A stretch of DNA of 31,046 bases. Source: a virus. Its lineage: Duplodnaviria > Caudoviricetes. The stretch covers positions 1 through 31,046 of the IMG/VR virus record IMGVR_UViG_3300032227_000542, one strand, 5' to 3'. The translations under genes and the position numbers were made by a program. The number at the start of each line of letters is the position of its first letter. Within the stretch, counting starts at the first letter, position 1. The notes beneath the pieces were generated by a model. It had not been told where the DNA came from, ran no database searches, and saw only the letters and a list, made by a program, of their open reading frames with translations. Positions 1,329 through 30,060 of the stretch are shown here, one piece after another.

Positions 1329-1361
1329 TTTGGATGTAGCAAAAAAGCAACAATATATTTG
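1329..1361 (+). promoter_or_regulatory. Bacteroidota primary-sigma promoter with operator-like spacer
   Basis: TTTG (1329-1332), 21-nt spacer, TATATTTG (1354-1361) matches the -33/-7 consensus; spacer holds TGTAGC-AAAAAA-GCAACA. Confidence 0.8.
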
Positions 1362-1825: not shown

Positions 1826-1845
1826 CCCCTAAAACCCTTTTTATT

Positions 1846-2139
1846 ATGAAAACAATGACAATTGAATTAGAACGCCCCGCAACGATTGAGGTACTCGAAT
1901 TCGAGCTCCCGTATTTCGCAAAGTTTAATAATTGCTATTACGCCGTAATGGATCCCCTCGAGGCTTTGCGCGTGTATAATTTTAGCTCAATAAAAGCGCC
2001 CATGATTGACATAGTACGCCACTCCTCGAGCGTTAAACAGGCCTTCGCTTGGGAAGCCGAACCCATCGACCGCGAGGAGTTCTTTCGCGTGTATAACGAC
2101 GCCCTGTTAGCTATTAACGAAATTCGTGAGAAGCTATGA
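1846..2139 (+). CDS. Hypothetical protein, 97 aa (MKTMTIELERP...)
   Basis: Start moved to ATG 1846, which follows the upstream stop and the leader motif; track start 1753 overlaps the previous gene. Confidence 0.75.
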   Translation: MKTMTIELERPATIEVLEFELPYFAKFNNCYYAVMDPLEALRVYNFSSIKAPMIDIVRHSSSVKQAFAWEAEPIDREEFFRVYNDALLAINEIREKL

Positions 2140-2240
2140 GAAGGGCGGCCCGATTTGTAAAATACGCCGCGTGGACGCTGGCTATTTACACCCTCCTCGA
2201 ATACTGTGAGGAGCTTAACCAATGTTTAGCGAACTTTTAA
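2136..2240 (+). CDS. Small hydrophobic protein, 34 aa (MRRAARFVKYAAWTLAIYTLLEYCEELNQCLANF)
   Basis: ATGA overlap with the upstream stop; fills the gap before the next gene. Confidence 0.55.
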   Translation: MRRAARFVKYAAWTLAIYTLLEYCEELNQCLANF

Positions 2241-2251
2241 AACCCTTTTAC

Positions 2252-2917
2252 ATGTACCCTTTGAACCCCGAAACGATGGCGCAAATTCAGAAATTTACAC
2301 AGCGCCTTAACAGCCAGCCCGACCCGCTGAGCGTCGAACAAACCCCCGACCGAAAGGCCTCGACGGTAGTTATAAGTCATATCGAAATGACGCTCGACGA
2401 GCTTTTTTTCGGCCAATGGAAAACCGAAAATTTTAAATGGAGCCCGATAGCCAATGAAATCCAAGGCGCTCTTGAGCTCGTAGTAATCCACCCCGTAACA
2501 GGTTACGAAATACGCCGAACGGGAGCCGCCTCAATTGTTATTATGGTAGATAAGGCGCCCGAAAACATCCAAGGCCAGGAGCGTAACCAATGGGCGCTTA
2601 ACCCATCCAACAAAAAACCTAACGCCCTCGACATGGCATTCGGAAAGCTAAAAAGCGAATGTTTAAAAAACGCAGCCCAAAGCCTCGGGCCCATCTTTGG
2701 CCGCGACCTTAATAGGAAAAATAAGGACGTTTATAAGCCGTTTAAGATAGCCAGCGCGGGCGAACTACCCGAGGCGCTTATATCACGCCTTGAGGTTGGC
2801 ATCCTTAACGGGGACCCCCAAGCCGCTGAGGCTATCAAAGCCCTCGAGGCCCATTTAAGCCCCGAACAAAAAACCAATTTACAAACCCTTTTAATTCAAA
2901 AAGAAAATGGAAATTAA
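2252..2917 (+). CDS. Single-strand annealing protein, Rad52/Rad22 (Sak)-like
   Basis: KSECLKNAAQSLGPIFGRDLNR resembles the Rad52-family helix motif; adjacent to an exonuclease; start probably ATG 2252 rather than 2222. Confidence 0.7.
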   Translation: MYPLNPETMAQIQKFTQRLNSQPDPLSVEQTPDRKASTVVISHIEMTLDELFFGQWKTENFKWSPIANEIQGALELVVIHPVTGYEIRRTGAASIVIMVDKAPENIQGQERNQWALNPSNKKPNALDMAFGKLKSECLKNAAQSLGPIFGRDLNRKNKDVYKPFKIASAGELPEALISRLEVGILNGDPQAAEAIKALEAHLSPEQKTNLQTLLIQKENGN

Positions 2918-3611
2918 CCCTTACCTCGCCGAGTATATGGCGGGCGTTAACCAACAAACGGCCGCCTGGGATAAACTACGCCTTGGACGCTTCACAGGCT
3001 CAGGAATTAGCGCCCTAATGACGGGCCCGAAAACTAAGGCCGCAAAGGAGGCGGGCGAACTAAGCGAAACCGCCAAAAAATACATTTACGAGAAAGTAAT
3101 GGAGGAGGTGACGGGCCAAAGCAGTAACGAGGCAACCTCACGCGCTATCGACTGGGGGAATGAATGGGAAGAACACGCCCTTTTAGAACTCAAAAAAGCC
3201 CTCGGGAGCCCTGATGAATCGACCGAACTCAAACCCTCGTTTAAACTGTTTAACGATTATTTCGGGTGCTCACCTGATGCGTTTATGATTGAGCCGAATT
3301 TCGGAGCCGTTGGGGTTGAAATAAAGTGTCCGTGGAACTCGGTTAACCATTACCTCCATTCCCAAGTTGAAACGGCCGAGGACCTGAAAAAAGTTAACCC
3401 TGATTACTATTGGCAAATCATGGGCAACATGTTAACCTTTAATTTGCCTGCGTGGATATTCGCCAGCTATGACCCGCGTCAACCTGAAAACCGCCGACTC
3501 CATTACGTCGTAATCGAGGCCGAAATCGACGCATTAAATGAGCTTTGCGAGCGTATGGAATCCGCCCACCGCTATAAAGAGTCAATTAAAACCGCTTGGA
3601 TTAATTCGTAA
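2907..3611 (+). CDS. YqaJ / lambda-exonuclease-like recombination nuclease
   Basis: WDKLRLGRFTGS, WGNEWE, GCSPDA, EIKCP and YYWQ motifs. Confidence 0.92.
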   Translation: MEINPYLAEYMAGVNQQTAAWDKLRLGRFTGSGISALMTGPKTKAAKEAGELSETAKKYIYEKVMEEVTGQSSNEATSRAIDWGNEWEEHALLELKKALGSPDESTELKPSFKLFNDYFGCSPDAFMIEPNFGAVGVEIKCPWNSVNHYLHSQVETAEDLKKVNPDYYWQIMGNMLTFNLPAWIFASYDPRQPENRRLHYVVIEAEIDALNELCERMESAHRYKESIKTAWINS

Positions 3612-3624
3612 CCCTTAAATTTTA
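3609..3624 (+). repeat. 16-bp direct repeat TAACCCTTAAATTTTA, copy 1 (early leader motif)
   Basis: Identical to 5974-5989; one mismatch to 9438-9453. Confidence 0.9.
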
Positions 3625-3628
3625 TCTT

Positions 3629-4996
3629 ATGAATTATTTAGAGTTTTTAGAATCTAAGCGCCATAGCCAAAGCGACTACGGGATTGAGCCCGTTTTTTAT
3701 CCTGAGCGGCTTTTCGATTATCAACGCCACGTAGCCAACTACGCCATTAAAAAAGGTCGGTGCGCTGTATTTTTAGATACGGGCCTGGGTAAAACGATAA
3801 TAGAATTAACCATAGCCGTAAACTATTTACAAAGCACCAATAAACCCGTCTTAATTATTACGCCTCTGGCGGTCGCTTTTCAATTCATTAAGGAGGCCGA
3901 GAAATTTGGTATCGATGATATCGAATACAGTAAAAACGGTAAGTTTAAAAGTAAAATAGTTATTTGTAACTATGAGCGGTTGGATCATTTCGACCCCTCA
4001 CATTTTGAATGCGTTATTTTAGATGAGTCAAGTATCCTCAAGAATTTCGACGGGGCTATTAAATCTAATATAACCTCGTTTCTTAAAAAAGTACGTTACC
4101 GTTTCCTGTTTACCGCTACGCCCAGCCCTAACGATTTTATCGAATTGGGAACGTCATCCGAGGCGCTTGGATATTTAGGTTATACCGATATGCTTACAAA
4201 GTTTTTTAAGAATAACGGTAACTCTATTGACATTAGGCACGCGGGCTCAGAATGGTATTTAAAAGCTCATGCCGAGCGTGATTTTTGGCGCTGGGTTGCG
4301 AGTTGGTCGATATCAGTTAAAAAACCTTCCGATATTGGTTTTAGTGATGATTTACATGTACTGCCGGAATTAATAGAGCTCGAAACGGTAGTAAATAATA
4401 AAAACCCCCTGGCGATTAACGGTCAAACATCGATGTTTAATTTTCCCGCCGTTAATTTCTTCGAGATTAAAAGCGAAGTCCGATCCACCATTACCGAACG
4501 TTGTGAAATGGCGGCTCAGAAATCAGCTAATAACGACACGTCGGTTTATTGGGTTAATCTAAATGACGAGGCCAAATTAATAGGCCAATTGGATAAAAGC
4601 GCCATAGAGATTAGCGGAAATATGAGCATAGATAAAAAGGAGGAAATCCTTTTAAATTTCGCCAGCGGTGAAATAAAAAAGCTCATAACGAAAACATCTA
4701 TTACGGCGTTTGGCCTGAATTGGCAACACTGTAATCATACGGTTTATTTTCCAACTTATTCCTATGAGCAGTATTACCAAGCTATTCGCCGCTTTTGGCG
4801 CTTTGGTCAGACGAAACCCGTTTACGTGGATCTAATCTTGAGCGACGGCCAAACGCGCATTATGCAAAGCCTAAATGTAAAAAAGGATAAAGCTATCCGA
4901 ATGTTTAAAGAGCTAACCTCCCAAACCAATAGCGACTTTAAAATTTCGACAAAAGAATTCAATAAAAAAATAACCCTTCCAAACTTTTTAAAATGA
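3629..4996 (+). CDS. SNF2-like superfamily 2 helicase/ATPase
   Basis: DTGLGKT, ILDESS, TATP, FGLNWQ and QAIRRFWRFGQ motifs. Confidence 0.9.
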   Translation: MNYLEFLESKRHSQSDYGIEPVFYPERLFDYQRHVANYAIKKGRCAVFLDTGLGKTIIELTIAVNYLQSTNKPVLIITPLAVAFQFIKEAEKFGIDDIEYSKNGKFKSKIVICNYERLDHFDPSHFECVILDESSILKNFDGAIKSNITSFLKKVRYRFLFTATPSPNDFIELGTSSEALGYLGYTDMLTKFFKNNGNSIDIRHAGSEWYLKAHAERDFWRWVASWSISVKKPSDIGFSDDLHVLPELIELETVVNNKNPLAINGQTSMFNFPAVNFFEIKSEVRSTITERCEMAAQKSANNDTSVYWVNLNDEAKLIGQLDKSAIEISGNMSIDKKEEILLNFASGEIKKLITKTSITAFGLNWQHCNHTVYFPTYSYEQYYQAIRRFWRFGQTKPVYVDLILSDGQTRIMQSLNVKKDKAIRMFKELTSQTNSDFKISTKEFNKKITLPNFLK

Positions 4997-5976
4997 TTAA
5001 GGACCAGTTAATTTCCGAAAACTTCGCGATTTATAACAGCGATTGTATGTATGTTTTACCGAGCCTAAAAAACGATAGCATAGACCTGGCGGTTTATAGT
5101 CCCCCGTTTGCTGGGTTATATAATTACAGTAGTTCCGAAAATGATTTTAGCAACTGTGAAAATAAAGATCAATTTTTAGATCAGTATGAATTCTTAGTAG
5201 CCGAAATGGCGCGCGTTACTAAGCCAGGTCGAATAAACGCCGTCCATTGTACCGACGTATTCGATAACCGTAGTTTTTTATGGGACTTTCCCCACGAGAT
5301 TATCAGAATTCACGAAAAGTACGGGTTCCATTATCGCAACCGTATAACCATTTGGAAAGAACCCCTCAAAGTTCGTATGCGTACTATGGTGCAAAGCCTT
5401 ATGCACAAATTTATAGTTGAGGATACGACGCGCTGTTTTACCGCTATGCCCGATTACGTTTTAATCTTTACCAAAACAGGCGAAAATGAGACTCCCGTAA
5501 CCCATCCTTTCGGGTTGACTGAATACTTTGGCGCGACTCCTTTTTTAAAAGAGCATGAGGAAACCTACGGCAATTATGCGGACTTTAAAAAGAAATGGAA
5601 AAACTTTACGGGCGATCCTCGGGAGAATAAATTAAGTCATATTACCTGGCAGCGATACGCATCGAGCGTTTGGGATGATATCAGAATCGACAACGTTTTA
5701 CCGTTTAAAGATTCCAAAGAAGACGACGACGAAAAGCATGTCCACCCTTTACAGTTGGACGTCATAGACCGAATAGTTGAATTATATTCTAATCTTGGCG
5801 AAACGGTTTTTACTCCATTTATGGGGGTTGGATCTGAGGTTTATAGCCCCGTTTCGTTGGGACGTAAAGGAATCGGAATAGAGCTCAAAGATTCCTATTT
5901 TAAACAGTCGGTTTTAAATATGAAGGAAGCCGAAAAGCGATTTAATAAAGTAGAACAATTAACAATAAATGTATAA
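4993..5976 (+). CDS. DNA methyltransferase, N4-cytosine/N6-adenine, beta-class motif order
   Basis: N-terminal SPPF catalytic motif, KHVHP, C-terminal FTPFMGVGS SAM-binding motif and GIEL; ATGA overlap with the helicase. Confidence 0.92.
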   Translation: MIKDQLISENFAIYNSDCMYVLPSLKNDSIDLAVYSPPFAGLYNYSSSENDFSNCENKDQFLDQYEFLVAEMARVTKPGRINAVHCTDVFDNRSFLWDFPHEIIRIHEKYGFHYRNRITIWKEPLKVRMRTMVQSLMHKFIVEDTTRCFTAMPDYVLIFTKTGENETPVTHPFGLTEYFGATPFLKEHEETYGNYADFKKKWKNFTGDPRENKLSHITWQRYASSVWDDIRIDNVLPFKDSKEDDDEKHVHPLQLDVIDRIVELYSNLGETVFTPFMGVGSEVYSPVSLGRKGIGIELKDSYFKQSVLNMKEAEKRFNKVEQLTINV

Positions 5977-5989
5977 CCCTTAAATTTTA
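5974..5989 (+). repeat. 16-bp direct repeat TAACCCTTAAATTTTA, copy 2
   Basis: Identical to 3609-3624. Confidence 0.9.
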
Positions 5990-5994
5990 ATAAA

Positions 5995-6420
5995 ATGAAT
6001 AAGAGAAGCCCTTTTAACTACGTCGCTCGCATTGAGCGCGTCCAAAAATGGATAACGGCCAACCCAGGTCTTCACGTTAACGAGATGCTCGACGAAATGA
6101 GCGACACCCCGCGCGGGACTTTGAGCGCGTTACTTAGTCACATGCTCGGCGCTGGGCACATATTACGGCACGAAAGAGGTTTTTACACCTTACCCGAATT
6201 AGTGGCGAGCCCTCGTTCGGTAGCGTATGATATCAAAAAGCTAAAAAAATCGCCCAATATTTTCAGAACGATAAAAAACCGTACCGCCAAGCCAAAGGGA
6301 GTACTCCCCGAAATGCCCCTAAATGCCCCTGAGCCGAATGAAATCGAGGCCGCCATTAACCTGTTGAAAAGTCACGGTTATAAAGTTTTCAAACCGACGA
6401 CGGAATTTAAAGAGATTTAG
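5995..6420 (+). CDS. Putative winged-helix DNA-binding protein
   Basis: PGLHVNEMLDEM...RGTLSALLSHMLGAGHILRHERGFYTL has a wHTH-like helix-helix-hairpin pattern. Confidence 0.6.
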   Translation: MNKRSPFNYVARIERVQKWITANPGLHVNEMLDEMSDTPRGTLSALLSHMLGAGHILRHERGFYTLPELVASPRSVAYDIKKLKKSPNIFRTIKNRTAKPKGVLPEMPLNAPEPNEIEAAINLLKSHGYKVFKPTTEFKEI

Positions 6421-6531: not shown

Positions 6532-7194
6532 ATGAAAAAATCTTTTTTACTTTACATCGACGCCCTCGAGGTTCTGAATGTTTTAACCGATGAACAAGCG
6601 GGGCAATTATTTAAAGCCATTCGAGCTTATCAGTTAGGAATTGAGTTCGAATCCGAGCCCATTATTCAAATCGCCCTGGCTTCATTCATTCAGAATTTTA
6701 AACGCGATAATGAAAAGTATTTAATGATAGTCGAACGTAACCGCTCGAATGGGTTAAAAAATAGCAAGTTAAAATATGAAACCCAAAAAACCCAAAGGAA
6801 CCCAGTGGGTTCCAATGGCATCCACTCGGGGCCACTCGTAACCGATAATGGTAATGATAATGGTAATGTAAAGGGTAATGGTAATGTTACTCAAGAAAAA
6901 AAGTCTATAAAAAAAGAATTTATCCCGCCAACCCTTGAGGAGGTAAAAACTTGGTTTATCGAAAACGGTTCCACCGCTCAGGCTGGCGCGAAGGCATGGC
7001 AATATTACACCGATGGGGATTGGGTTGACTCCAAAGGAACCCCCGTTAAGAATTGGCGCCAAAAAATGCGCGGTGGGCGCTGGCTTGAGGATAAACCAAA
7101 CGCTCAAACCAAACCCGAGGAGGTTTATCGGTCGCTCGATCGTGAATTAATGCCAGGCTCAGACATCCTTTACAAATACAATCCCCACGGATAA
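6532..7194 (+). CDS. Phage replication initiator / replisome organiser (DUF6291-like N-terminus)
   Basis: KKSFLLY...LTDEQAGQLFKAI N-terminus, low-complexity DNGN linker, FIPPTLEEV...KNWR C-terminus; directly upstream of dnaB. Confidence 0.8.
   Translation: MKKSFLLYIDALEVLNVLTDEQAGQLFKAIRAYQLGIEFESEPIIQIALASFIQNFKRDNEKYLMIVERNRSNGLKNSKLKYETQKTQRNPVGSNGIHSGPLVTDNGNDNGNVKGNGNVTQEKKSIKKEFIPPTLEEVKTWFIENGSTAQAGAKAWQYYTDGDWVDSKGTPVKNWRQKMRGGRWLEDKPNAQTKPEEVYRSLDRELMPGSDILYKYNPHG
6780..6886 (+). repeat. Iteron-like repeats, putative replication origin inside the initiator gene
   Basis: AACCCA x3, palindrome GGAACCCA-G-TGGGTTCC (6797-6813), CCACTCG x2, multiple TAATG repeats. Confidence 0.5.
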
Positions 7195-7209
7195 CCCCAA
7201 AAAACACCC

Positions 7210-8544
7210 ATGTTAACACCGCCCAACGATACTGAACTCGAAAAAATAGCCTTAGGAGCCATTTTACTCGATTTTAACGCACTCAAACGCGTTGAGGGTA
7301 TCCTAACGCCTGAAAAGTTTTTTGACCCGCGTAATGGGCTTATTTTCGATGCAATCCAAAAACTCAAAAGTGAAAATTTACCAATTGACATTTTAACCGT
7401 TACTCAAACGCTCAGAAAGTCGAAACAATTGAGCGCGGCGGGGGGGCCCATTTACCTATCGGAACTAACTACCCGCGTAAGTTCTACGGCCAACCTCGAG
7501 ACGTGGGCGCTGCAAATGGTGGAAATGTACCTAAAAAGGGAACTCGCTAAAATGGCGGCGCGGTTAGCTGAGGAGGCGTTATCGCCTGAGCATGACCCTT
7601 TCGACCTTTATAACAGCTATTCCATCCAATTAACCGACCTCATTAAATCCAACCTCAAAGGCGAGACCTCGCATATTTCACAAATTACCCCCGAAACGAT
7701 GCAAAGTATTGAGGAACGTGAGCGCCACGGCCTGAGCGGAATACCGACGGGAATTAGGACAGTTGACAACATTCTCGGAGGCCACCAAAAAGGGGACCTC
7801 ATTTATATTGCGGCCCGCCCAGGCATGGGGAAAACCGCCCTCGCGTTAAGTGTGGCGCTAAACATGGCTCAAAGCGGTTACCCCGTGGCGTTCTTTTCAC
7901 TTGAAATGTCACGGGCTCAGTTAGTTTTTAGGCTGGCGTCCATCCTTTCGGGAATAAACGCCGAGAAGCTCGCGAAATATACCCTCAATACCGAGGATAA
8001 AAAAACCTATTACCAAACCGTCGATCGTTTAAACGCCCTCCCGATATACATCGACGATCGCCCAGGCCTTTCGATACTCGATTTAAAAACCCGCGTTAGA
8101 ACTTTGGCTGAGCGTTCAAACGTAAAGGCGGCCTTTATTGATTACGTCCAACTACTGAGCGCGGGTAATAAAAAGAATTTCGGGAGCCGTGAGCAAGAAA
8201 TAAGCACAATATCGAGAGGCCTCAAGTTAATCGCAAAAGAAAATGCCATCCCCGTAATCGCATTAAGCCAGCTTAGCCGAGCCGTAGAAGCCCGCCAGGA
8301 TAAAAGGCCCCTCCTTTCGGACCTGAGGGATTCGGGAAGCCTTGAACAGGACGCCGACGTTGTCGCTTTTCTTTACCGCGCTGGCTATTACGATACCAAC
8401 TCACCAACTAACGGGGCCGAGTTCATAATAGCAAAGCATCGAAACGGGCGAACGGGGATGTTAAGCGTCAATTTTACCCCCGAAACGATGCACTACACCG
8501 ACATTCAAAACAAAACAATAATTAACGAATCATGGGAGCTATGA
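7210..8544 (+). CDS. dnaB: Replicative DNA helicase
   Basis: AARPGMGKT, FSLEM, IDYVQL, LSQLSR, DLRDSGSLEQDAD and IAKHRNG. Confidence 0.97.
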   Translation: MLTPPNDTELEKIALGAILLDFNALKRVEGILTPEKFFDPRNGLIFDAIQKLKSENLPIDILTVTQTLRKSKQLSAAGGPIYLSELTTRVSSTANLETWALQMVEMYLKRELAKMAARLAEEALSPEHDPFDLYNSYSIQLTDLIKSNLKGETSHISQITPETMQSIEERERHGLSGIPTGIRTVDNILGGHQKGDLIYIAARPGMGKTALALSVALNMAQSGYPVAFFSLEMSRAQLVFRLASILSGINAEKLAKYTLNTEDKKTYYQTVDRLNALPIYIDDRPGLSILDLKTRVRTLAERSNVKAAFIDYVQLLSAGNKKNFGSREQEISTISRGLKLIAKENAIPVIALSQLSRAVEARQDKRPLLSDLRDSGSLEQDADVVAFLYRAGYYDTNSPTNGAEFIIAKHRNGRTGMLSVNFTPETMHYTDIQNKTIINESWEL

Positions 8545-9300: not shown

Positions 9301-9440
9301 AGGAATTAAAAAACGAGCTTTTTATACTAATGGCGCGGCGATCGCTCCGCCCATGCGTTACCGAAAACGCCCGCCAATGGAGTATAATGGCCGAGCTTTA
9401 TAAGCTAACAGGAAACGAGCGATACAAATTAAATAGTTAA
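9279..9440 (+). CDS. Hypothetical protein, 53 aa, ending LYKLTGNERYKLNS
   Basis: Translated by hand; fills the gap between ninG and the next gene; shares a C-terminal motif with 9825-10019. Confidence 0.75.
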   Translation: MENEERIKELKNELFILMARRSLRPCVTENARQWSIMAELYKLTGNERYKLNS

Positions 9441-9458
9441 CCCTTAAAATTTAAATAA

Positions 9459-9689
9459 ATGAGTAATTTTCAACCAAAGGAGGGCCAAGGCTCCCTTTTT
9501 AAAAACGAAAAAAAGCAAAACGAGAAAAGCCCCGATTATGGCGGCTCAGTTATCGTTAACGGCCGCGAAATGCGTCTGAGCGCGTGGGTAAAAGAGGGGA
9601 AAAGTGGTAAATTTTTAAGCCTCCAAATTAGCGAAAAGAAACAAGCCGAAACGCCAGCCAATGCGAGACAATCCGACGACATTTTCTGA
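9459..9689 (+). CDS. Small putative ssDNA-binding protein (DUF736-like)
   Basis: GSLFKN...PDYGG...LSAW...GKFLSL pattern with an acidic/aromatic DDIF tail typical of SSBs. Confidence 0.65.
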   Translation: MSNFQPKEGQGSLFKNEKKQNEKSPDYGGSVIVNGREMRLSAWVKEGKSGKFLSLQISEKKQAETPANARQSDDIF

Positions 9690-11377: not shown

Positions 11378-11380
11378 CAG

Positions 11381-11944
11381 TTAGGGAATTTGGTTAATTC
11401 TCCTCACGCCATAAGTACGGCTTGAGGCGGTATTTCCCGAACTAAATAAATAAGTATTCGAACCTTTTGTTATTCCAATCGGGCAGCGCTGGGGCCAAAC
11501 GTTGTTATTATACTCAGGAAATAAACTCGAGTTAGCACATAAATAATCGACCATGAGGCTCGTGTAGTGCTCAGCGTTTTGTTGCCATTTATTTAGTTGA
11601 TCTTTAAAAACGACATCGGGCACGGGCGTAGAATCTTCCGAGGTCCTTTGTACCATCGTGGCGTTATCAATTTTATAGGTTAACGCGGGGGCCGCCTCGA
11701 CCATCGCCCACCATAAAACAACGCGGCGCGCGTAATCGTCCACAAGGGTCAAATAATCGCCCGCTAGGGTATTATTAGCCACGTCGTTTTTAATCTTTTC
11801 GTAAAGGTTGGTCCCAAGGTATGGCGCGAGAAATTTATCCTGAGCCAAATAAATCGACGGATAAAGTAAATTTGGATCCACCGCCCCGTTTACGTTGGTA
11901 TATTTTTTAATATATACGTCTGATATCAAAAGTATTTCAGCCAT
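11381..11944 (-). CDS. Putative head-tail adaptor / head completion protein
   Basis: Helical 187-aa protein right after the portal; AQDKFLAPYLGTNLYEKI pattern. Confidence 0.6.
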   Translation of the reverse strand: MAEILLISDVYIKKYTNVNGAVDPNLLYPSIYLAQDKFLAPYLGTNLYEKIKNDVANNTLAGDYLTLVDDYARRVVLWWAMVEAAPALTYKIDNATMVQRTSEDSTPVPDVVFKDQLNKWQQNAEHYTSLMVDYLCANSSLFPEYNNNVWPQRCPIGITKGSNTYLFSSGNTASSRTYGVRRINQIP

Positions 11945-13776
11945 TATCTTCTATAATTTTTACCGTTTACTCCATAAATCGGATTCGTTGGGAGGAACCC
12001 GTTAAAATCGCTATCAATTGGTAGCAACGCCACTAATTCAGGATTACGAATTTTATACCCCATACGCTCAGCCCTGGCGACCGCGATCCTTTGCGAATCA
12101 TTCGCGAGCGGGTTTATTCCTTTGGCGTTTATATAGACCTCTTTTTGGAAAAAATGGTAACAGTTTCCTCCGCCCTTCCTGAGCCAAATGGAGTAAAAAT
12201 TGGACCCGTTAGGCCCCCATCCTGGGTTAACGGGACGGTCCTCCATTGCTTCAATATCCTCCTTTCGATAAAGTTTATCCGCCGCCATCATTTTTTTACA
12301 GAATTCCCGCTCAGGGCTTTTTGAACCCGCATATCTATACCGCGTCATGAATGTAACGCCCGCGTAATTCGTTTCGTCTTGGTCGCTAGGCTTCATTGGT
12401 TTCGCGCTTCCCGTCGACGCCAATTCATGGGCGGTTATTTTAACGAGCTCCTCGTTTTCGGCGTCGTCAGTTTCGTAATCGACCTCGTAAGAATCTATTA
12501 AAATATAACCCGAAGGCGGGTCGGTTCCGAGGGCTATCAGCTCCTCGGCTATTTCCGAGCCCAGCGCCTCGAGTTCATTGGTTTCACGCGCGCAACAAAC
12601 GGGCTTTTTTTTTTCATCCTCAGCCATTACGGGAGCGGATGAAGCGGGAACCTGAGCCGTAGGCGCTGGCGTATTAACCGCAATTTCGCCCGCGTTAGTT
12701 AATGGAGAATTTGGAATAACGGTAATACTAATATTTGGCATTTCATAACTCAAAATTTCCTCGAGTCCTGAGGCTAATTTTCTTTGAGCGGGATCGACGA
12801 CCTGATTTGTAAAAATTTGGAGGCCGACCGCCATTTCATCTTTATTCGAACCGAACCCACCGCCCACGTCACGAATACCGAAAAGCAAAGGAGTCACCAC
12901 GCGGTGAGCGACCATGATTAACGAGGTCGATTCCTTACTCAAAAACTCGTATTGTTTATCGGCGTCCGATAGTGGAAAGGTTGTAATATCGGGTTTAGGG
13001 GTATCGCGCTCGTTAAACGTCATTATGAATTTACCCGCATTCCTGGCGCCCGTTAATTCCCTTTCCCAATCCCTTTTTATTTGTTGTTGTTCGTCGGGAG
13101 CTGGCGCGCCTTGGAATAGGCTAACAATCATAGAAGGGCTCAGGCCGTTCATGATATTATTTACGTGATAAACGCTAATTTCCCGCGCTAATTCAATGGA
13201 ATTTATAGCGCTATAATAGTCGGGACGCGGGTAAATATTAGCCCCACAATATGCGAACTTATAAAATATTTGGCGCGGCTCCTCGGTGTTATTTTTTGGA
13301 TTAAATACGGGTAAAAACTCGGGTTTATTGCGTTTCTTACGTGTATTCGCCCAATCGTTTGAGTGATAAACGCCAACGATTTCCTCCTCCTCATTTGTGA
13401 CAGCTATCCGACATTCCTCAAAGGGTAAATGGCGGATTTTCGCTATGTTTTGACGGTCAATTGAGTAAATGACTTCAATGTAATAACCGCCGTATTTTTT
13501 GTAATCATGAGCGCAACCGTAAAAAACATCGTAAGCGCTGAGCGCCTCCAATCTTGAGTTATAAACGCCAGCCTCGAGACCCTTTCCCGCGAACATGTCA
13601 CCAATCGAAATACACAGCGAACCGTGAACGGCTCCCGTGGCGGCGAGCTCAGAAAGATATTGAGGAAATAAATTATCGACGCCGTAATTAACCCAGCCCG
13701 AACGGTCGGTTTTTTCGGCTGAGCTCCTCACCGTATAATCGGCGAGGCTTATTCGTTTTACGTTATGGGTTTCCAT
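11944..13776 (-). CDS. Portal protein with C-terminal head-morphogenesis (MuF-like) extension
   Basis: YGVDNLFPQYL, YPRPDY, NIMNGLSPSMIV, GARNAGKF and IMVAHRV..PLLFGI portal-like motifs in aa 1-360; Pro/Ala linker; REFC...GGGNCYH domain. Confidence 0.85.
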   Translation of the reverse strand: METHNVKRISLADYTVRSSAEKTDRSGWVNYGVDNLFPQYLSELAATGAVHGSLCISIGDMFAGKGLEAGVYNSRLEALSAYDVFYGCAHDYKKYGGYYIEVIYSIDRQNIAKIRHLPFEECRIAVTNEEEEIVGVYHSNDWANTRKKRNKPEFLPVFNPKNNTEEPRQIFYKFAYCGANIYPRPDYYSAINSIELAREISVYHVNNIMNGLSPSMIVSLFQGAPAPDEQQQIKRDWERELTGARNAGKFIMTFNERDTPKPDITTFPLSDADKQYEFLSKESTSLIMVAHRVVTPLLFGIRDVGGGFGSNKDEMAVGLQIFTNQVVDPAQRKLASGLEEILSYEMPNISITVIPNSPLTNAGEIAVNTPAPTAQVPASSAPVMAEDEKKKPVCCARETNELEALGSEIAEELIALGTDPPSGYILIDSYEVDYETDDAENEELVKITAHELASTGSAKPMKPSDQDETNYAGVTFMTRYRYAGSKSPEREFCKKMMAADKLYRKEDIEAMEDRPVNPGWGPNGSNFYSIWLRKGGGNCYHFFQKEVYINAKGINPLANDSQRIAVARAERMGYKIRNPELVALLPIDSDFNGFLPTNPIYGVNGKNYRR

Positions 13777-14158
13777 TGTAAATAATATCGTCGTTAATGG
13801 TTATATTGGGGACGTCGTAATAAATCGTCGCGCTCGTTAAATCGAGCCAACCGATTCGGCACAGGCCAACGACCGCCGCGTTAGTTGGGTCTAAATTTAC
13901 GGCCGAATTTTGACCGTAAACATAGTATCGATAACGCCCAGGAAGGGTTAACCCGAGCGTCGTTACGGTTAATTGGGTAATTCGTTGGTTTTCTATTACG
14001 ATCGTCGGGACCTGAGCGAGCTCCTCACCAACGGTTGAATTTTCCTCATGAATTAAAATAAATAAATAATGCGAAAACGCGACCGCGAAATATTGCCGCG
14101 ACTCGTTCAAACTTAAATATAAAGTCTGGCCCGCCTGATTTGTATTTAGATAATTCAT
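13763..14158 (-). CDS. Putative virion structural protein, beta-rich
   Basis: Position between tail tube and portal; GRYRYYVYGQ. Confidence 0.6.
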   Translation of the reverse strand: MNYLNTNQAGQTLYLSLNESRQYFAVAFSHYLFILIHEENSTVGEELAQVPTIVIENQRITQLTVTTLGLTLPGRYRYYVYGQNSAVNLDPTNAAVVGLCRIGWLDLTSATIYYDVPNITINDDIIYNGNP

Positions 14159-14166
14159 TTTCTTAT

Positions 14167-14203
14167 AAAAAAGGGGCGAGGTTTAACGCCCGCCCCCGTT
14201 TTT
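14167..14203 (-). terminator. Intrinsic terminator after the tail tube gene
   Basis: Minus strand GGGGCGGG-CGTTAAA-CCTCGCCCC then TTTTTT. Confidence 0.8.
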
Positions 14204-14226
14204 AATATATAACCCTTTAACGAATA

Positions 14227-14772
14227 TTATTGAACTACCGTAATTCCCGAGAAATTATCGAAAGGAACGGACGTGTACGCCTCAAGGAAATCAGGTTGGC
14301 CAGGCTCTTGAGCGTTAACGGTAATTTGGTAACCGTTTAGATCGCCTTTCGCCTTTCCTGATTGATAAGAACCCGTAGTTAAAAATGCTCCGTCGGTACG
14401 GCCTACGCAAACGATTTGATCGTCGTACAATTGAACGAAAACGATAAGTTTCGCTTTGCTCATTTGCTCGAGTTCTTTCTTTTTATCGTTCGAAAGTTTA
14501 CCCAAAGTAAGCTCGACCGTTTGGTCGTAATAAAGCGTTCCGTTTTCGAGGTTAGCGGTTGGCACCACAGTAACGGCGCCTGTGTTGCGGTTAGGTTGGT
14601 ATTGGAAAACGTCAACGCTTCCCGCAACGCCAGGAAGGCCGTCGATAATTCCGTTAGCGTCTAACGTTATTCCGCTGGCGAAAAACTCCCAATTCGCGAA
14701 ATATACGTTTTTGACCCCGCCGACCCCCTCGTTACAATCGAGCATAAAGCCCGCACTCAGTAAACATGGCAT
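14227..14772 (-). CDS. Major tail (tube) protein
   Basis: 181 aa after the capsid gene; LDCNEGVGGVKNVYF, ENGTLYYDQTV and SGKAKGDLNGYQIT...EP patterns. Confidence 0.7.
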   Translation of the reverse strand: MPCLLSAGFMLDCNEGVGGVKNVYFANWEFFASGITLDANGIIDGLPGVAGSVDVFQYQPNRNTGAVTVVPTANLENGTLYYDQTVELTLGKLSNDKKKELEQMSKAKLIVFVQLYDDQIVCVGRTDGAFLTTGSYQSGKAKGDLNGYQITVNAQEPGQPDFLEAYTSVPFDNFSGITVVQ

Positions 14773-14793
14773 AGTATTATATTTTTAAAGTTA

Positions 14794-14815
14794 GGGGGGG
14801 GCTTTTAAACCCCCC
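14794..14815 (-). other. G/C hairpin after the capsid gene without a U tract (stabiliser or weak terminator)
   Basis: Minus strand GGGGGG-TTTAAAAG-CCCCCC. Confidence 0.5.
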
Positions 14816-14825
14816 ATTTAATTTT

Positions 14826-15725
14826 TTAGAACCAAGTACCGTAAGCGGCGATTTCGTTACCGATACCGAACTGAGCGCCCGCGAAAAACTTAGCGCTAAA
14901 GCGGACGTTATCCTCAGCAAATTGGCCCATATCGACAACCTGAATGTTATTCCAATCGCTCAGGACGTTAGTACCGAACCAAAGGTTAGATTTTTGAGCC
15001 ATTACGATAGTATCATCTGGCATGCCTGGGCAAATTGCCAACTGATAACCCAAATAAGATTTAGGCATTTCAGGACCGCCGTAAGTATACCAACCGTTAC
15101 CCGCCGCCGCGCTGGCTTGCATAAATGCCTCCCAAACGTTTTGCGCGATGTAAATAACAGGCTTTTCGGTTGAACGCTTTACAGCAGTTGGACAATCCGC
15201 AACGGTCAAAGCGATTTTAGCAATTACGTTGCTCGAGTCGATAGCTACGGGAGTGGCTACGAAATTAACGCCCGAACCGCCCGCATTCATAAGAGTCAAA
15301 AGTCCGTCGTATTGGCCCGCCGTAGCGTTAACGCCCGTCCAAAGGATTTCCTCGTTTTTCGCCGCGATTCCCTCGAGCATGTTAGCGATCAAAGTCTCGC
15401 TCAATGCTGGCTCGAGTTCACCGTTTTGTACGTAGTTAGCGCCCCAATCCGCGAGGAAAGTGTTTTTACAAAGGTTGCGTTGAACTTGGAATTTCTCAAG
15501 CGTTAAAACGCGCTCGGTAATAGTCACAGTACCCAGCGGCGTAAAGTCACAAGTTGGAGCCTCAAAAGTGATATTATCGACCAACTTTTTAACGATTTGT
15601 TTGTAGTCGATATTTTCTTTAACGGTCACGTGTTGGAGTGACTCGTTAGCAAGGAACGCGGCTTTAATATACTCACCCGCATATTTTCCCGCATAAGTTG
15701 TAGTTAACGATGTAGTCGTAGCCAT
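14826..15725 (-). CDS. Major capsid protein
   Basis: 299 aa after protease and scaffold; TTTYAGKYAGEYI N-terminus, EEILWTG...YDGL, SYLGYQLAICPGM and C-terminal G..IV-like end consistent with the HK97 fold. Confidence 0.85.
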   Translation of the reverse strand: MATTTSLTTTYAGKYAGEYIKAAFLANESLQHVTVKENIDYKQIVKKLVDNITFEAPTCDFTPLGTVTITERVLTLEKFQVQRNLCKNTFLADWGANYVQNGELEPALSETLIANMLEGIAAKNEEILWTGVNATAGQYDGLLTLMNAGGSGVNFVATPVAIDSSNVIAKIALTVADCPTAVKRSTEKPVIYIAQNVWEAFMQASAAAGNGWYTYGGPEMPKSYLGYQLAICPGMPDDTIVMAQKSNLWFGTNVLSDWNNIQVVDMGQFAEDNVRFSAKFFAGAQFGIGNEIAAYGTWF

Positions 15726-15737
15726 AGCTAATTTTTT

Positions 15738-16346
15738 TTATTTAATTTTTTCGATGTTGTTTATAATGCGTTCGCGGAGGGTCATCTGAGAAAATGGTTT
15801 TTCCGCTTTTTGCTCGCCCATGATTACGCGAGTAGAACTTTTTTCTTTTACCGATACGGTTGCGGGTTGCTTTTTTACAGCGGCCAATTCAGCCTTAACC
15901 GCTCCGAGTTTTTCGGTAGCTTTTGAAGCCTCATTTTTCACGATCGCGAGCTCAGTTTCTAACGCGGTTTTTTCGCCCTCAAGGGTCGAAACGCGCTCGC
16001 TGAGTTTATTAATTGCGCTCAGTAAATCGTCCGAGCTCATTTCCTTCTCCATTTCAGGAAGGCCCATTTCGGCGATTTGAGAAGCCTCGTTAACGTCGAT
16101 AAATTCACCGCTTTCGAGCTCATAACGGCCCGCGGTGGCTGGGACCATGTTACCCTCGGCGTCCTTAGTATAAACCTCGGCGCCAATCGCGAAACTTTCG
16201 GCGCTTGTATAAATGGGAGTCCCATCTATTAATTTGCCTTCCGTCTCGAGTTTAACTTCCTCGAGTTTAATACCGTGAACGCTTGGATCAATCCCAAACT
16301 TTGAAAATATATTTTTCAAAGAGTCTTTTAAATTGGTTTTTGACAT
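15738..16346 (-). CDS. Putative capsid scaffold protein
   Basis: Acidic N-terminal part plus coiled coil, between protease and capsid genes. Confidence 0.7.
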   Translation of the reverse strand: MSKTNLKDSLKNIFSKFGIDPSVHGIKLEEVKLETEGKLIDGTPIYTSAESFAIGAEVYTKDAEGNMVPATAGRYELESGEFIDVNEASQIAEMGLPEMEKEMSSDDLLSAINKLSERVSTLEGEKTALETELAIVKNEASKATEKLGAVKAELAAVKKQPATVSVKEKSSTRVIMGEQKAEKPFSQMTLRERIINNIEKIK

Positions 16347-16366
16347 GCGTATAATGTTTTGCGTAT

Positions 16367-16375
16367 GTAACGGAA
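16367..16375 (-). promoter_or_regulatory. Candidate late promoter element TTCCGTTAC, copy 1
   Basis: Intergenic, downstream of a terminator and 21 nt before the scaffold ATG; same 9-mer at 29032-29040. Confidence 0.5.
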
Positions 16376-16414
16376 ACGCCTATTTTTTTCCCTAATTACA
16401 AATTATACCAAACC

Positions 16415-16444
16415 AAAAAGGGCCCCTCGTTAGGAGCCCTTTTT
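16415..16444 (-). terminator. Intrinsic terminator after the protease gene
   Basis: AAAAAGGGCTCCT-AACG-AGGGGCCCTTTTT; the U-G wobble is valid on the minus strand. Confidence 0.85.
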
Positions 16445-16493
16445 AGTCTTCACCCTTAAACACTTGAACCGAAACTCACCTCGCGGTGATGCT
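16415..16493 (-). ncRNA. Candidate 3'UTR-derived small RNA (hairpin, seed, terminator)
   Basis: TCACC-GCGA-GGTGA hairpin, single-stranded GTTTCGGTTCAAGTGTTTAAGGGTG, then terminator. Confidence 0.45.
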
Positions 16494-17078
16494 TTAAAAT
16501 GAATTAAATAATTTTTCTATTTCCTGTAATGCAAGCGCCTCGGGGCTTACCGCGCCCATCGTTAAACCGACGTGGTCAAAGTAACCCTCAATCGAAAACC
16601 CTTTAACCTTTCCCTCTTTAACGCTCGCCCATATTTCGGGGTTATCTACTTTTGAACCGATTACCCAAGTTCCAACGGGTACGTCCATTCCTAAAAAAGC
16701 GCTTTTATCGTTTTCACTTTCCTTATACCACGATTCCACTACGGTGACGCCCTCAATAGGTTTCATATGTTCAAAAGTATGAGCATTTTGAAACCCATTT
16801 TTCATAAACGCGTGAGCGCAGTTATAAATCGTTTCTTTATCGAAAACGATATAATACTCCTCGCCCGTTTCCTTATCAATCCTTAAAATCGGTTTATCGG
16901 GAATTAGCGCGGGGCCGTAAAGCATACGCCGTTCGTTATCGAGGGCCTCGAGTTTAACTTCCTTTTTTAATGCGATCCAATTGGACTCAATGGCGGGAAA
17001 TTCTACGAGTGAAATAGCCTCGACTCCCAAGCTACCCTCGGGGCCAATTACACATTTAAATATTTTTTTCGAATCCAT
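16494..17078 (-). CDS. XkdF-like putative prohead serine protease
   Basis: AISLVEFPAIE, RMLYGPALIP, HTFEH, VESW, GTWV and KGFSIEG. Confidence 0.85.
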   Translation of the reverse strand: MDSKKIFKCVIGPEGSLGVEAISLVEFPAIESNWIALKKEVKLEALDNERRMLYGPALIPDKPILRIDKETGEEYYIVFDKETIYNCAHAFMKNGFQNAHTFEHMKPIEGVTVVESWYKESENDKSAFLGMDVPVGTWVIGSKVDNPEIWASVKEGKVKGFSIEGYFDHVGLTMGAVSPEALALQEIEKLFNSF

Positions 17079-17085
17079 TTTTTTT

Positions 17086-17157
17086 TATATTTGTTCCGAA
17101 TTAGTTTTCAGTTTCAAAATATGGGTTGGGCCTCCAAACGTGGGGGCCTTTCTTTTT
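17086..17157 (+). ncRNA. Candidate small RNA antisense to the late operon, with its -7 box
   Basis: TATATTTG at 17086-17093, then GGCCTCCA-AACG-TGGGGGCC-TTTCTTTTT terminator whose wobble fits only the + strand; no clear -33 box. Confidence 0.5.
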
Positions 17158-19405
17158 ATAGTCTCGCGAGGTCTTGAACTTTCGCCCGCGCCTCAAGTGA
17201 ACTCGCCACGTCGCCCGCGAGCACATAAGCGGGTTGAGCTTGCTGAGGTTGGTTTTGAATATTAAACGCCGCCAGCGGGTTAAACTCGGGAACGGTTCCA
17301 CCTGAAGCCGCCACGCCTTGAGCGCTGAGGCTTGGGACGCTCGTATTATTTCCCCCACTCGGAGCGGGCGAACTAAATGTCGTCGCCTTAATCTTTGCCA
17401 CGTTAGCAAGTCCCGCCGCAACCGCCGCCGCCGCCGCGATAAATGCGCGCGGTACCGATGTAGGGTCGCCAGGAATCAATTGGGACGCATAAGCGCCCTG
17501 AGCGGCTTTATAAGTCTCTATACCCGTCTGAGCGATTTGGAGAGCTTTTTGGCGCTGAAACGCGGCTTTTTGGCTTTGCTGGCTTTTACCCGCGAAAGCC
17601 TCATTTAACGAGAGAAGGGTGGAAACGGTATTGGTGGCCGCTTGGATTCGGGCGTCGCTTAATTGTTTCGCCTTATCCGCCTCGGCTTTGGCGGCGTCTT
17701 CCTGTTTTTTGGTTTCCTCATCGCGGTACCTTTGGCGGATTTCCCCCTCTTTGGTTAATAGTTCGTTTTCGAGGTTGGCCGCATCCGAGCCCGCCGCCTT
17801 TAAAATCTCGATACGTTCAAAATAGGAATCTCGGAGCGCCTGTAATTCGCGATCCTTTGCGCTGAGCCCCGCTTGAAAATTAGCCTCCTCGAGCGCCTCA
17901 AGCTCCGCCGCCTCATTTAGTGCATTTTGGCGGACTTGGTCCGCGAGCGCTTTATCCTTTTCGGCTTGCTGGGCGAGTTCGAGGTCCGAATATTTTTTAA
18001 GAACCCCAAGGCGTTCCGCTTCCTTTTCGTCCGCGATTTGATTAATTAAATTTTGATTATTGCCCGCCTGAGTTTTTAACTTTTCATATTTTAAATCGAG
18101 CTGGCGGAGTTCCTTTTCCTCATCACTTAAACCCGCCTGAAAACGAGCCTCGCGGGCGTCGCTAATTGCCTGAGTTACCTCCGCCTCGTTTTGTTTAATT
18201 TGTTGGGCGCGTTGTTGGGCGGCTTGTTTTGCGCGCTCGATTCGTTTCTTCTCCTCAGCCGCCGCGTCGGTTCGTATTTTCTCCGCCGCGCTCGCCTCCT
18301 CCTCAGCCGCTTTTATATTTATTTCACCATTTGCCGCAATTGCCTTAGATCGCGCGTCGAGTTGTTCTTTCGTTAATAGAACTCCTTTTTTTTCGAGCTC
18401 ATTAACCTTATTAATTAAGTTATCGTTTTCGGCGATTTCCTTATTACGATAGTCGTCGTTTATCGCTTTGACATCGCCGCCCGTTTTTTGAGCGTTAGCG
18501 ACCGCCAGCCTCCGAGCGTTATCGAGTTTTTTCTGATTCCCCTCGAGGTTAGCGATAGCCGAGTCCACAGAATCCGCCGCCGCGACCGCCGTTAAACCAA
18601 TGGCGTCGGTAAATCCTGTAATGGCATTTTTTACCGAACTAATTACGGAGCCAATTACCTCGAATGCAGTTCCAACGCCAGGGATTATATTGGCGAGTTT
18701 ATCGAAATTAGTAATTATGAGCGCTATAACCGAACCTATTAAAAATATAGGGTTAGTTAAAAGCGCTTTTCCAAGGTTTAAAACCGACTTGGTAAAAGCC
18801 CCCGAGCCTTCCGTCGCTCCTGAGAAATTTAACCCCTTTACATTTTTAGCCAACCCGTTAAGACTATCCGCCGCGCCGCCGAAATCGAGCGACCCGAGAC
18901 GGCTTTGGAGGTTGCGTAAATTATTTCCCGCACTCTCAAACGCTGGGCCCGCGTTGGCTCCAATCTCCTCGTTAAAATCTTTTTGGGCGTCCTTTAATTG
19001 CTCGAGCCGCGTTTTTAAATTCTGATATTCGGCCGAGGTTTTCGGGAGGTTGGTAGTTTGGAGCTCGTTTGTGAGGTCCTTTATTTGTTGGCGAAAGTTC
19101 TTAACGGGTTCCGAGGGTACGTTAGCGCCCAAATCATTCAACCGCCCTTTTAATTCCTCGACGCTTTGGCTAACGACTTTCGAGGACCCGCCGAGTTCTT
19201 TATATTGTAACGCGAGCTCGGTCCATTCGCGCGAACTTGGATCGACTGAGGCCAATTGCTTTTTAAGGTCCCCAACTTGCTGGGCCCAACCTTGAGCCGA
19301 GGCCCCCGCCTCGTTAATGGCGCCCGTGAGGTTGTCGATGCTTTTGGTAGCGCCCGAGTCATCGACCGTTAAAATTACTTGCGCCTTTAAATTTTCCTCA
19401 GCCAT
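17156..19405 (-). CDS. Tape measure protein
   Basis: 749 aa, Ala-rich coiled coils, internal repeats (FQAGLS x2), hydrophobic LLTNPIFLIGSVIALII segment. Confidence 0.85.
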   Translation of the reverse strand: MAEENLKAQVILTVDDSGATKSIDNLTGAINEAGASAQGWAQQVGDLKKQLASVDPSSREWTELALQYKELGGSSKVVSQSVEELKGRLNDLGANVPSEPVKNFRQQIKDLTNELQTTNLPKTSAEYQNLKTRLEQLKDAQKDFNEEIGANAGPAFESAGNNLRNLQSRLGSLDFGGAADSLNGLAKNVKGLNFSGATEGSGAFTKSVLNLGKALLTNPIFLIGSVIALIITNFDKLANIIPGVGTAFEVIGSVISSVKNAITGFTDAIGLTAVAAADSVDSAIANLEGNQKKLDNARRLAVANAQKTGGDVKAINDDYRNKEIAENDNLINKVNELEKKGVLLTKEQLDARSKAIAANGEINIKAAEEEASAAEKIRTDAAAEEKKRIERAKQAAQQRAQQIKQNEAEVTQAISDAREARFQAGLSDEEKELRQLDLKYEKLKTQAGNNQNLINQIADEKEAERLGVLKKYSDLELAQQAEKDKALADQVRQNALNEAAELEALEEANFQAGLSAKDRELQALRDSYFERIEILKAAGSDAANLENELLTKEGEIRQRYRDEETKKQEDAAKAEADKAKQLSDARIQAATNTVSTLLSLNEAFAGKSQQSQKAAFQRQKALQIAQTGIETYKAAQGAYASQLIPGDPTSVPRAFIAAAAAVAAGLANVAKIKATTFSSPAPSGGNNTSVPSLSAQGVAASGGTVPEFNPLAAFNIQNQPQQAQPAYVLAGDVASSLEARAKVQDLARL

Positions 19406-29031: not shown

Positions 29032-29040
29032 GTAACGGAA
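29032..29040 (-). promoter_or_regulatory. Candidate late promoter element TTCCGTTAC, copy 2
   Basis: Intergenic at the head of the terS/tail operon; identical to 16367-16375. Confidence 0.5.
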
Positions 29041-29069
29041 TATCCGTACACTTTTGCCCGAAAACGTCC

Positions 29070-29531
29070 CTAATCGTCTAATTCGCCCTCGCTTATTTCG
29101 TTTTTTAGCCAGCTAATAATATCCGAGCCTCGGCATGAAACGCAACCGACGCGGCTCCCCGTCATCAGGTAAACCCATTCTCCGAGCTCCTTAACTGTTT
29201 GGCCTGTGATTACGCCCTGAGTCGGTAGGCCCGAAATGAAGGTCCTTAAAAGTTCCGTTTCCTCATCCGACAGGCGATAGCGCCCCCATTTATTAATCGG
29301 GCATCGGTATAACGAATATTTCGTTTTACGCGGCATATAACAGCCACACAGGCGCGTTTTACGTCGGTAGTGGGTTATTTTGTTGTTTTCCTGCGCCTCG
29401 GCTAAATCCTCGGGGCTGAGCTTGTTTCCTATTATGAGGGTTCCGCAACTGTGGGTTAACGGTCGGAAGTGCTTACAGGCCGTGCACGTCGCTAAACGTT
29501 GGGCCCGAATTGCTGGGGGTACGGTGAACAT
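29070..29531 (-). CDS. Cys-rich putative metal-binding protein
   Basis: RLATCTAC, LCGCYM, CPINKW and CVSC. Confidence 0.7.
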   Translation of the reverse strand: MFTVPPAIRAQRLATCTACKHFRPLTHSCGTLIIGNKLSPEDLAEAQENNKITHYRRKTRLCGCYMPRKTKYSLYRCPINKWGRYRLSDEETELLRTFISGLPTQGVITGQTVKELGEWVYLMTGSRVGCVSCRGSDIISWLKNEISEGELDD

Positions 29532-30024
29532 TTTTCCTAATTCGTGTTAATGCGTTTTCGACTAATTTATAAAGGGTCTTAATGGGGATTCCTGTTTTGG
29601 CGCTGGCGTCCTTATAACTAAAATCGGGGAGGGCGTATAACCTCAAAACGACGGCGTCCATTTGGGGCATGAGTGAAATATAGGCGTCGACGTACTCGTT
29701 ATTTAACCGCGATCCAAGCCACGGGGCCAATGGCTCCTCGAGATGCTTAACGCTATTTTCGTCCCAATTCCTGAGGAACTTACTAAATTTCACATGATAA
29801 CGGCTCGAGCGGTCGATAGCCATTAAAAACAAAGCGCGGTTAACGTAAAATTCGAGGGTTCCTTCATTCGCCAGGCGCTCGGCCTTTTCGCGTTGGTTTT
29901 CGAGTATCTTTAAAAGGGTTTCCGATAACAGGTCGTCGCCGCGGTGGGGGTCGCTCATTAATCCCCTTGCATATCTGAGCCATTTGGGATATAATCGAGC
30001 CGTTTCGTTTTCCAAAGTTTTCAC
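29473..30024 (-). CDS. ECF-like RNA polymerase sigma-70 factor (regions 2 and 4)
   Basis: LYPKWLRYARGL...DDLLSETLLKIL (region 2) and VLRLY...FSYKDASAKTGIPIKTLYKLV (region 4 HTH); start uncertain (GTG 30024 chosen, track gives 30051). Confidence 0.85.
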   Translation of the reverse strand: MKTLENETARLYPKWLRYARGLMSDPHRGDDLLSETLLKILENQREKAERLANEGTLEFYVNRALFLMAIDRSSRYHVKFSKFLRNWDENSVKHLEEPLAPWLGSRLNNEYVDAYISLMPQMDAVVLRLYALPDFSYKDASAKTGIPIKTLYKLVENALTRIRKNVHRTPSNSGPTFSDVHGL

Positions 30025-30029
30025 CCCGT

Positions 30030-30060
30030 TTTGAATGTAGCAAAAAAACAACTATCTTTG
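30030..30060 (+). promoter_or_regulatory. Bacteroidota primary-sigma promoter, divergent from the sigma gene
   Basis: TTTG (30030-30033), 19-nt spacer, TATCTTTG (30053-30060); spacer nearly identical to that of the 1329 promoter. Confidence 0.8.

Follow-up and report, generated by a model that had tools for sequence, protein, structure and literature searches.

Among the closest described systems are the Hfq-dependent small RNA GcvB of enterobacteria and the antisense RNAs of phages, of which c4 of phage P1 is one. GcvB is a stand-alone host sRNA of Shine-Dalgarno-using bacteria, where it silences C/A-rich translation-enhancing motifs in many leaders (PMC3879156). In Bacteroides, FopS and GibS combine a single-stranded G/U-rich 5' stretch with an intrinsic terminator and pair with translation initiation regions in several mRNAs (PMC11697453; PMC7366714). 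FopS-14 is derived from a 3' UTR, a FopS-like sequence has been reported in a Bacteroides phage, and FopS targets host polysaccharide operons, mostly from its own promoter (PMC11697453). The phage RNAs sar of P22, OOP and aQ of lambda, and 24B_1 pair with phage mRNAs and block their translation or trigger their decay, acting in the choice between lysis and lysogeny and mostly in cis against one gene; the phage sRNAs covered in the available part of a 2025 review concern lysogeny, exclusion or host targets, and none of the antisense RNAs described there comes from the 3' UTR of a virion gene or targets replication genes (PMC12197685). Early phage mRNAs can also be inactivated via a shared motif by the endoribonuclease RegB of T4, a protein nuclease acting on GGAG (PMC1702504).

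The locus described here lies in a phage genome of 31,046 bases, which is the whole virus record and is referred to below as the window. Like FopS and GibS, it is predicted to present a single-stranded G/U-rich stretch in front of an intrinsic terminator and to pair with the initiation regions of several mRNAs, but its seeds are situated in the tails of structural genes and match the phage's own early genes. In contrast to RegB, the predicted agent would be a pairing RNA. The start of the FopS-10 primer has G/U richness alone in common with the seeds found here (PMC11697453). At E<=1, no Rfam match to FopS or GibS was obtained for the window and three distant loci (the presence of a FopS model in Rfam 15 is not confirmed), and no Rfam family came near its gathering score in the same sequences. 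The tails probably work in the manner of FopS and GcvB without being members of the FopS family by sequence. We posit, with moderate confidence, that both messages, tube and protease, have a 3' tail that likely acts as a base-pairing anti-leader RNA and would lower the translation of several early genes late in infection. In a full-text literature search, which covered few subscription papers, repression of early genes by the 3' tails of virion genes was nowhere described, and the literature found did not address how early translation is shut off in phages of Shine-Dalgarno-less hosts.

Genome organization, predicted host and data sets

Genes for replication and recombination (exonuclease, helicase, methyltransferase, DnaB, NinG, SSB) are located on the plus strand of the window, and those for virion and lysis on the minus strand. 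The terms 'early' and 'late' are used as operational labels based on gene function and position, not on expression. The leaders of the window are A-rich and without Shine-Dalgarno motifs, and both plus-strand operons are preceded by TAnnTTTG boxes, which we take to be the Bacteroidota host-type promoter consensus. Together, these features point to a host of Bacteroidota type and no closer, and Flavobacterium is not established as the host. A first genome scan for the host gave no match, and a search over 5 of 64 parts gave three Bacteroidia DnaB matches (42-43%), which had the best E-values among the matches listed and do not assign the host.

The sigma-70/ECF-like factor encoded by the phage is predicted to drive late transcription (Table 1). 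Of the 17 genomes, 12 have the GGGAAA..TCCGTT pattern ahead of the scaffold gene, and we infer that this predicted promoter is served by the phage sigma factor; the copy ahead of the scaffold gene of the window is predicted to restart transcription past the protease terminator. Two further hairpins were observed. The first is GC-rich (1565-1610, plus strand of the window; GCGCG..TAACGCGC), lies past the first early gene, has similar ends in relatives and is possibly a processing or antitermination site. The second is a conserved G/C hairpin without U-tract between the capsid and tube genes (14785-14815, minus strand, and relatives), which likely sets the mRNA ratio of both genes.

Two scans for relatives gave 80 and 39 loci, and 20 of the 27 larger records were read whole. 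The resulting test set consists of 17 genomes, namely 16 relatives with DnaB and terminase plus the window. Bacteroidota controls comprised 40 stretches of 20 kb (800 kb) and 33 groEL loci, all from this one phylum, and duplexes were scored by RNAduplex plus opening energies.

Table 1. Positions of the features discussed in the text, in coordinates of the window.
Feature	Position	Strand	Remarks
Host-type promoter -7 box, main early operon	1354..1361	+	TAnnTTTG
Three early leaders	1833..2909	+	AACCCTTT copies at 1833, 2241, 2884
Helicase gene leader	3609..3631	+	ACCCTTAAA at 3611
Methyltransferase gene leader	4971..4995	+	TAACCCTT at 4971; 9-nt match to tube spacer
Leader of 141-aa putative regulator	5972..5997	+	10-nt match to tube seed, 9-nt match to protease seed
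DnaB helicase leader	7180..7212	+	6-7 nt matches in window; co-varies with both spacers in relatives
SSB gene leader	9438..9461	+	SSB gene 9459-9689
Portal gene region -31..-6	13782..13807	-	best predicted tube-spacer partner in window
Intrinsic terminator behind tube gene	14163..14203	-	stem 14172-14197; kept in relatives
Tube-gene 3' spacer	14204..14229	-	from the stop codon up to the terminator; 14208-14220 is the predicted seed
Putative tail tube gene, 181 aa	14227..14772	-	downstream of major capsid-like gene
Predicted late promoter GGGAAA..TCCGTT	16369..16392	-	second copy 29034-29059 (-)
Bidirectional-type intrinsic terminator behind protease gene	16410..16447	-	hairpin 16410-16449
Protease 3' UTR	16448..16496	-	small 5' hairpin 16476-16489, then unpaired G/U-rich stretch with 9-mer 16452-16460
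Head maturation protease gene (XkdF-like)	16494..17078	-	PF14550 E=1e-16; phrog_3017
Third unit	17086..17157	+	TATATTTG box, about 35 nt G/U-rich, terminator; in 9/17 clade genomes
Phage sigma-70/ECF-like factor	29473..30051	-	phrog_1740 E=5.5e-12; weak sub-cut-off Pfam sigma matches
Second host-type promoter -7 box	30053-30060		TAnnTTTG

Predicted seeds in the tails of two virion gene messages

On the minus strand, the tube seed (14208-14220) reads TTAAAGGGTTATA, and fold prediction leaves the tube spacer nearly unstructured, with a weak fold of 2-4 bp only. The protease UTR is predicted to fold (z=-4.05) into a 5' hairpin, an open single-stranded seed and the terminator. The terminators of the two genes (16410-16449 and 14172-14197) are the two best terminator hairpins of the minus strand, with a seed just upstream of each, which confirms the placement of both seeds between stop codon and hairpin in a previous, sequence-only reading of this DNA. 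In 3'UTR-derived base-pairing sRNAs the seed is likewise found just upstream of the terminator of the parent mRNA. A TAnnTTTG box, looked for as the mark of an own host-sigma promoter, was absent from both tails, and the terminator behind the tube gene is the predicted 3' end of the scaffold-capsid-tube message. The same reading had named the two genes protease and tail tube. The first name is upheld by the PF14550 match; the second stands in part, as gene position and Atlas leads of 0.83-0.84 to tail-tube clusters (below 0.9) speak for it, whereas the protein matches the unnamed phrog_19091 and has no named match in PHROGs, Pfam or PDB sequence search.

All seed and leader matches cited previously were recovered at their coordinates by an exact word search of both strands, including the pairing of the tube UTR (14208-14220) with 5972-5981 over 10 nt. 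Throughout the window, ACCCTTAAA occurs on the plus strand at 3611, 5976, 9440 and 16452 and has zero copies on the minus strand, while AACCCTTT occurs on the plus strand at 1833, 2241, 2884, 14211 and 16597. Not cited previously were a further copy, TAACCCTT at 4971, and the third unit (17086-17157, plus strand).

The tube spacer has a perfect complement of at least 8 nt to 9 of the 16 early leaders (shuffle mean 0.7), a level reached in none of 300 shuffles and by one of 780 late-strand windows, and the protease spacer has one to 3 of the 16 (4 of 300 shuffles; 1.9% of windows), although these leader counts are not independent events because the leaders have one motif in common. The matches of both spacers, which the previous reading had proposed to weigh against composition, exceed the shuffled controls, and the feature is real and non-random. 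When duplexes were corrected for accessibility, both seeds were predicted to pair better with the 19 early than with the 20 late start regions (p about 0.001). The duplex energy of the protease spacer was no better than that of shuffles (p=0.39), and fold-back of the tails on the leader of their own gene was not significant (tube p 0.07, 0.65; protease p 0.60, 0.89).

Co-variation among close relatives

The leader word ACCC is specific to early genes, in favour of the sequence-only reading: it was found in 30.5% of 275 early and 2.6% of 310 late leaders of the 17 genomes, and in 6.7% of 526 generic Bacteroidota leaders. Conservation of the exact seeds is poor: 3 of 42 rows have TTAAAGGGTTATA and at least 5 of 24 rows have TTTAAGGGT. 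A GGGT core is present in 27 of the 42 distinct tube spacers of the window's clade, and G exceeds C in 34 of these 42 and in 21 of 24 distinct protease spacer rows, one of which is false. One lineage has lost the G-rich tube seed, which is missing from about ten distinct spacers at 60-67% identity, and some of these genomes retain a G-rich spacer at the protease gene (G015, G016) or past the endolysin (G017).

When the window was excluded, own spacers matched own early leaders better than the leaders of other genomes (8-mers; p=0.0006 for tube and p=0.0008 for protease). This effect is modest, with no one target dominating in the window's clade; it is weaker at other word lengths, and for the tube spacer p was 0.015-0.32 once near-duplicates were removed. 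Same-sense, capsid-UTR and tube-leader controls of the own-versus-other comparison were not significant. By gene family, p<0.05 was obtained in 15 of 56 early tests and also in 9 of 88 non-early tests, from which it follows that relatedness inflates the p values. The most consistent families were SSB and DnaB, SSB being the sole family in which each of the four own-versus-other tests gave p<0.05, and the leader of the 141-aa regulator showed no co-variation with the seeds in relatives.

The early-over-late preference was above that of shuffled seeds in 13 of 16 relatives for the tube spacer and in 10 of 12 for the protease spacer, and early start regions contained 6 sites of 9 nt or longer against 1.5 expected and 11 against 1.3 expected. 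Only 3 of 17 genomes for the tube spacer, and 3 of 13 for the protease spacer, have their longest match in the start region of an early gene, the window being in neither set. Because the longest match is so rarely found there, the pattern in the window's clade looks like many short matches and not like one target.

Some observations on gene arrangement were made in the same genomes. Compared with the window, G017 has its replication operon inverted (7459-13505), and its endolysin is followed by a terminator whose spacer contains TTTAAGGTG. Five genomes (G002, G003, G005, G013, G014) carry an early-strand gene of 344-349 aa between protease and scaffold that converges on the protease terminator, and its 3' spacer is likewise G/T-rich in the first three of them. 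Upstream of several small early genes (G001 2517-3255, G007 18807-19628, G016 14536-15163) lies a sequence resembling GGAGGTGA. This is unusual in a phage of Bacteroidota, and the sequence might be either a repeat or a genuine Shine-Dalgarno motif.

A third unit and its distant counterpart

The third unit is predicted to be a candidate small RNA of about 60 nt that would be antisense to the tape-measure/protease intergenic region, that is, the protease leader region. In the 9 of 17 genomes that have the unit, variation of its promoter-type TAnnTTTG box (17086-17093) stays within TAnnTT[T/A]G, and no early-over-late preference of the unit was detected in the 17-genome clade. In a distant clade, a similar unit stands at the close of the late operon, with a match to the leader ahead of the first early gene (45 pairs; 8.6 vs 7.3 nt; none of 20000 permutations; two loci without a called ORF were left out), and a promoter-like box is present in 34 of the 45 pairs. 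In L322 (14735-14900) and related loci, the box is followed by a G/U-rich stretch and a terminator, and the matched first-early-gene leader lies about 70 nt downstream.

Co-variation in a distant clade

In the distant phages, the tube protein is 36% identical and the order of capsid, tube, spacer and terminator is retained. G exceeds C in all 19 distinct spacers with a called terminator, while 8 distant loci are without one. One early gene, of 124 aa, has a start region complementary to the tube spacer (28 distinct spacer-leader pairs), with a mean longest match of 11.4 nt for own and 7.8 nt for other pairs (none of 20000 permutations). The matches are located mostly at -11..+2 of the target gene; its start region has the longest match of the whole locus in 22 of the 28 pairs, and in 3 of the 28 the match is just 6-7 nt. 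Compensatory changes are visible in single columns, one of which reads C/C in 10 cases, G/G in 4, A/A in 2 and a mismatch in 1, and another A/A in 14 and T/T in 3; furthermore, two far relatives share a wholly different 12-mer between seed and leader. Seed type requires 7 changes on the tube protein tree as well as on the target protein tree (minimum 5), which corresponds to perhaps four to six independent events, and one group falls into different clades on the two trees, yet its seed and leader agree.

Since tail and target change together in relatives, the tails likely act as small RNAs. The seed and leader co-variation that the sequence-only reading had put forward as a check is strong in the distant clade and only modest in that of the window. 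As the homology between the two is positional and not one of sequence, the distant clade supports the kind of mechanism and not the exact targets of the window. For the distant target, the structure model has an OB domain plus two helices (pLDDT 74); calling it 'SSB-like' is a guess, since PHROGs gave no match, the Atlas clusters are unnamed and the OB-fold matches are weak (E 0.03-0.1).

Two further points concern the distant spacers. An antisense mini-gene beginning in the spacer was considered and rejected, an ATG being present in some distant spacers and missing from others. In L353/L488, where the target gene encodes 128 aa, the tube spacer has a perfect match of 16 nt some 1500 nt upstream of this gene, apparently in the leader of the first early gene, which suggests two seeds in one spacer.

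Alternative explanations

The tube tail might act mainly in cis, with a read-through transcript folding onto the portal start about 430 nt downstream and limiting portal output, so that the match to early leaders would be secondary. The top partner of the tube spacer in the window is indeed the late portal gene region and not an early leader, with the best accessibility-corrected duplex (-14.5 kcal/mol); duplexes of -12 to -18 kcal/mol were found in 8 of 17 genomes, and the own-versus-other energy of the portal family gave p=0.004. We nevertheless regard this as unlikely: the conserved third G of GGGTT pairs with the early ACCC and not with the ACCA of the portal, the portal site is codon-constrained, the distant clade has no comparable portal match, and the protease tail would be left unexplained.

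It is improbable that the tails target host mRNAs with A/C-rich leaders in a form of host shut-off, the early leaders of the phage copying the strong leader style of the host. Matches were found in 0.6-3.6% of 526 generic Bacteroidota leaders, which are controls and not the true host, compared with 9-17% of own early leaders, and the co-variation is gene-specific and concerns one phage gene. FopS does repress host mRNAs by pairing with their initiation regions (PMC11697453), and phages of different hosts would likewise give own-over-other matching.

Composition or chance (A/C-rich leaders without structure, together with a mild strand skew), or sites of an RNA-binding protein, would produce G/U-rich tails without a pairing role, and to this we assign similarly little probability. 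The shuffle, window, same-sense and host controls argue against it, as do the gene-specific compensatory changes in the distant clade; in its favour, early genes show an excess of C at their four-fold sites (skew about -0.2), late genes being neutral there, and the matches in the window's clade are short. DNA strand skew was rejected as the cause, being mild and contradicted by co-oriented genomes. In G017 and G019, the early genes are co-oriented with the late ones and the pattern is kept, with the G/U-rich unit still on the transcribed strand, so that the mirror tracks RNA and not the DNA strand. G-rich spacers as a general trait of Bacteroidota 3' UTRs were also rejected, since the stop-to-terminator spacers of the control are not G-rich, C exceeding G in 20 of 36 and in 20 of 27.

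We assign the lowest probability to a site that works in the DNA at both places, as a protein operator or in recombination, with no RNA duplex: the G-U wobble test for RNA-level pairing was negative (32 G-U vs 35 A-C, mirror duplexes being equally stable) and does not favour RNA, and a changing DNA-binding protein would likewise yield co-variation, but one copy is always found in the stretch from stop codon to terminator and its counterpart covers the start of translation (in most distant pairs at -11..+2), and the two are antisense at the RNA level whether the early genes are opposite to or co-oriented with the late ones.

Proposed mechanism and implications

For the preferred reading, in which the tails pair in trans with early leaders, the following course may be envisaged. 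The phage sigma factor would drive the late messages, and the terminator-protected tails of these abundant structural messages would accumulate late, either released by cleavage or still attached. Their unpaired G/U-rich seeds would then pair in trans with the start regions of early mRNAs, and pairing over about -20..+2 might block 30S loading on Shine-Dalgarno-less leaders. In Bacteroidetes, initiation relies on adenines at -3, -6 and -11 to -15 (PMC7366714), and the predicted pairing covers this adenine stretch. The most consistent targets would be replication genes, namely those for SSB and DnaB and, in the distant clade, the OB-fold gene.

The sequence-only reading had gone further and posited one fixed code through which late transcripts shut down a whole early regulon. 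Such a fixed code is not borne out, as about 10-14% of the early leaders of relatives have an 8-nt match, the 9-mer is not constant in its exact form even where proteins are 98% identical, and the distant clade indicates one gene above all. The better reading is that part of the early genes are damped, and shutdown of the whole regulon, while possible, goes beyond the evidence and is rather doubtful. Only tentatively do we suggest that widespread Bacteroidota phages might use an RNA address code to time their cycle, in which the early word ACCC/AACC is avoided by late genes and mirrored by the 3' tails of those virion messages that are most abundant.

The proposed pairing offers a testable answer to the question of how early translation is turned off, in which seeds and targets are named and compensatory pairs found in nature lend themselves to use as swap controls. 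If true, it would extend anti-leader regulation of the FopS/GcvB type to the temporal control of phages, with the tails of structural mRNAs as regulators. Making capsid and tail mRNA would then automatically silence SSB and other replication genes, with no need for a dedicated repressor.
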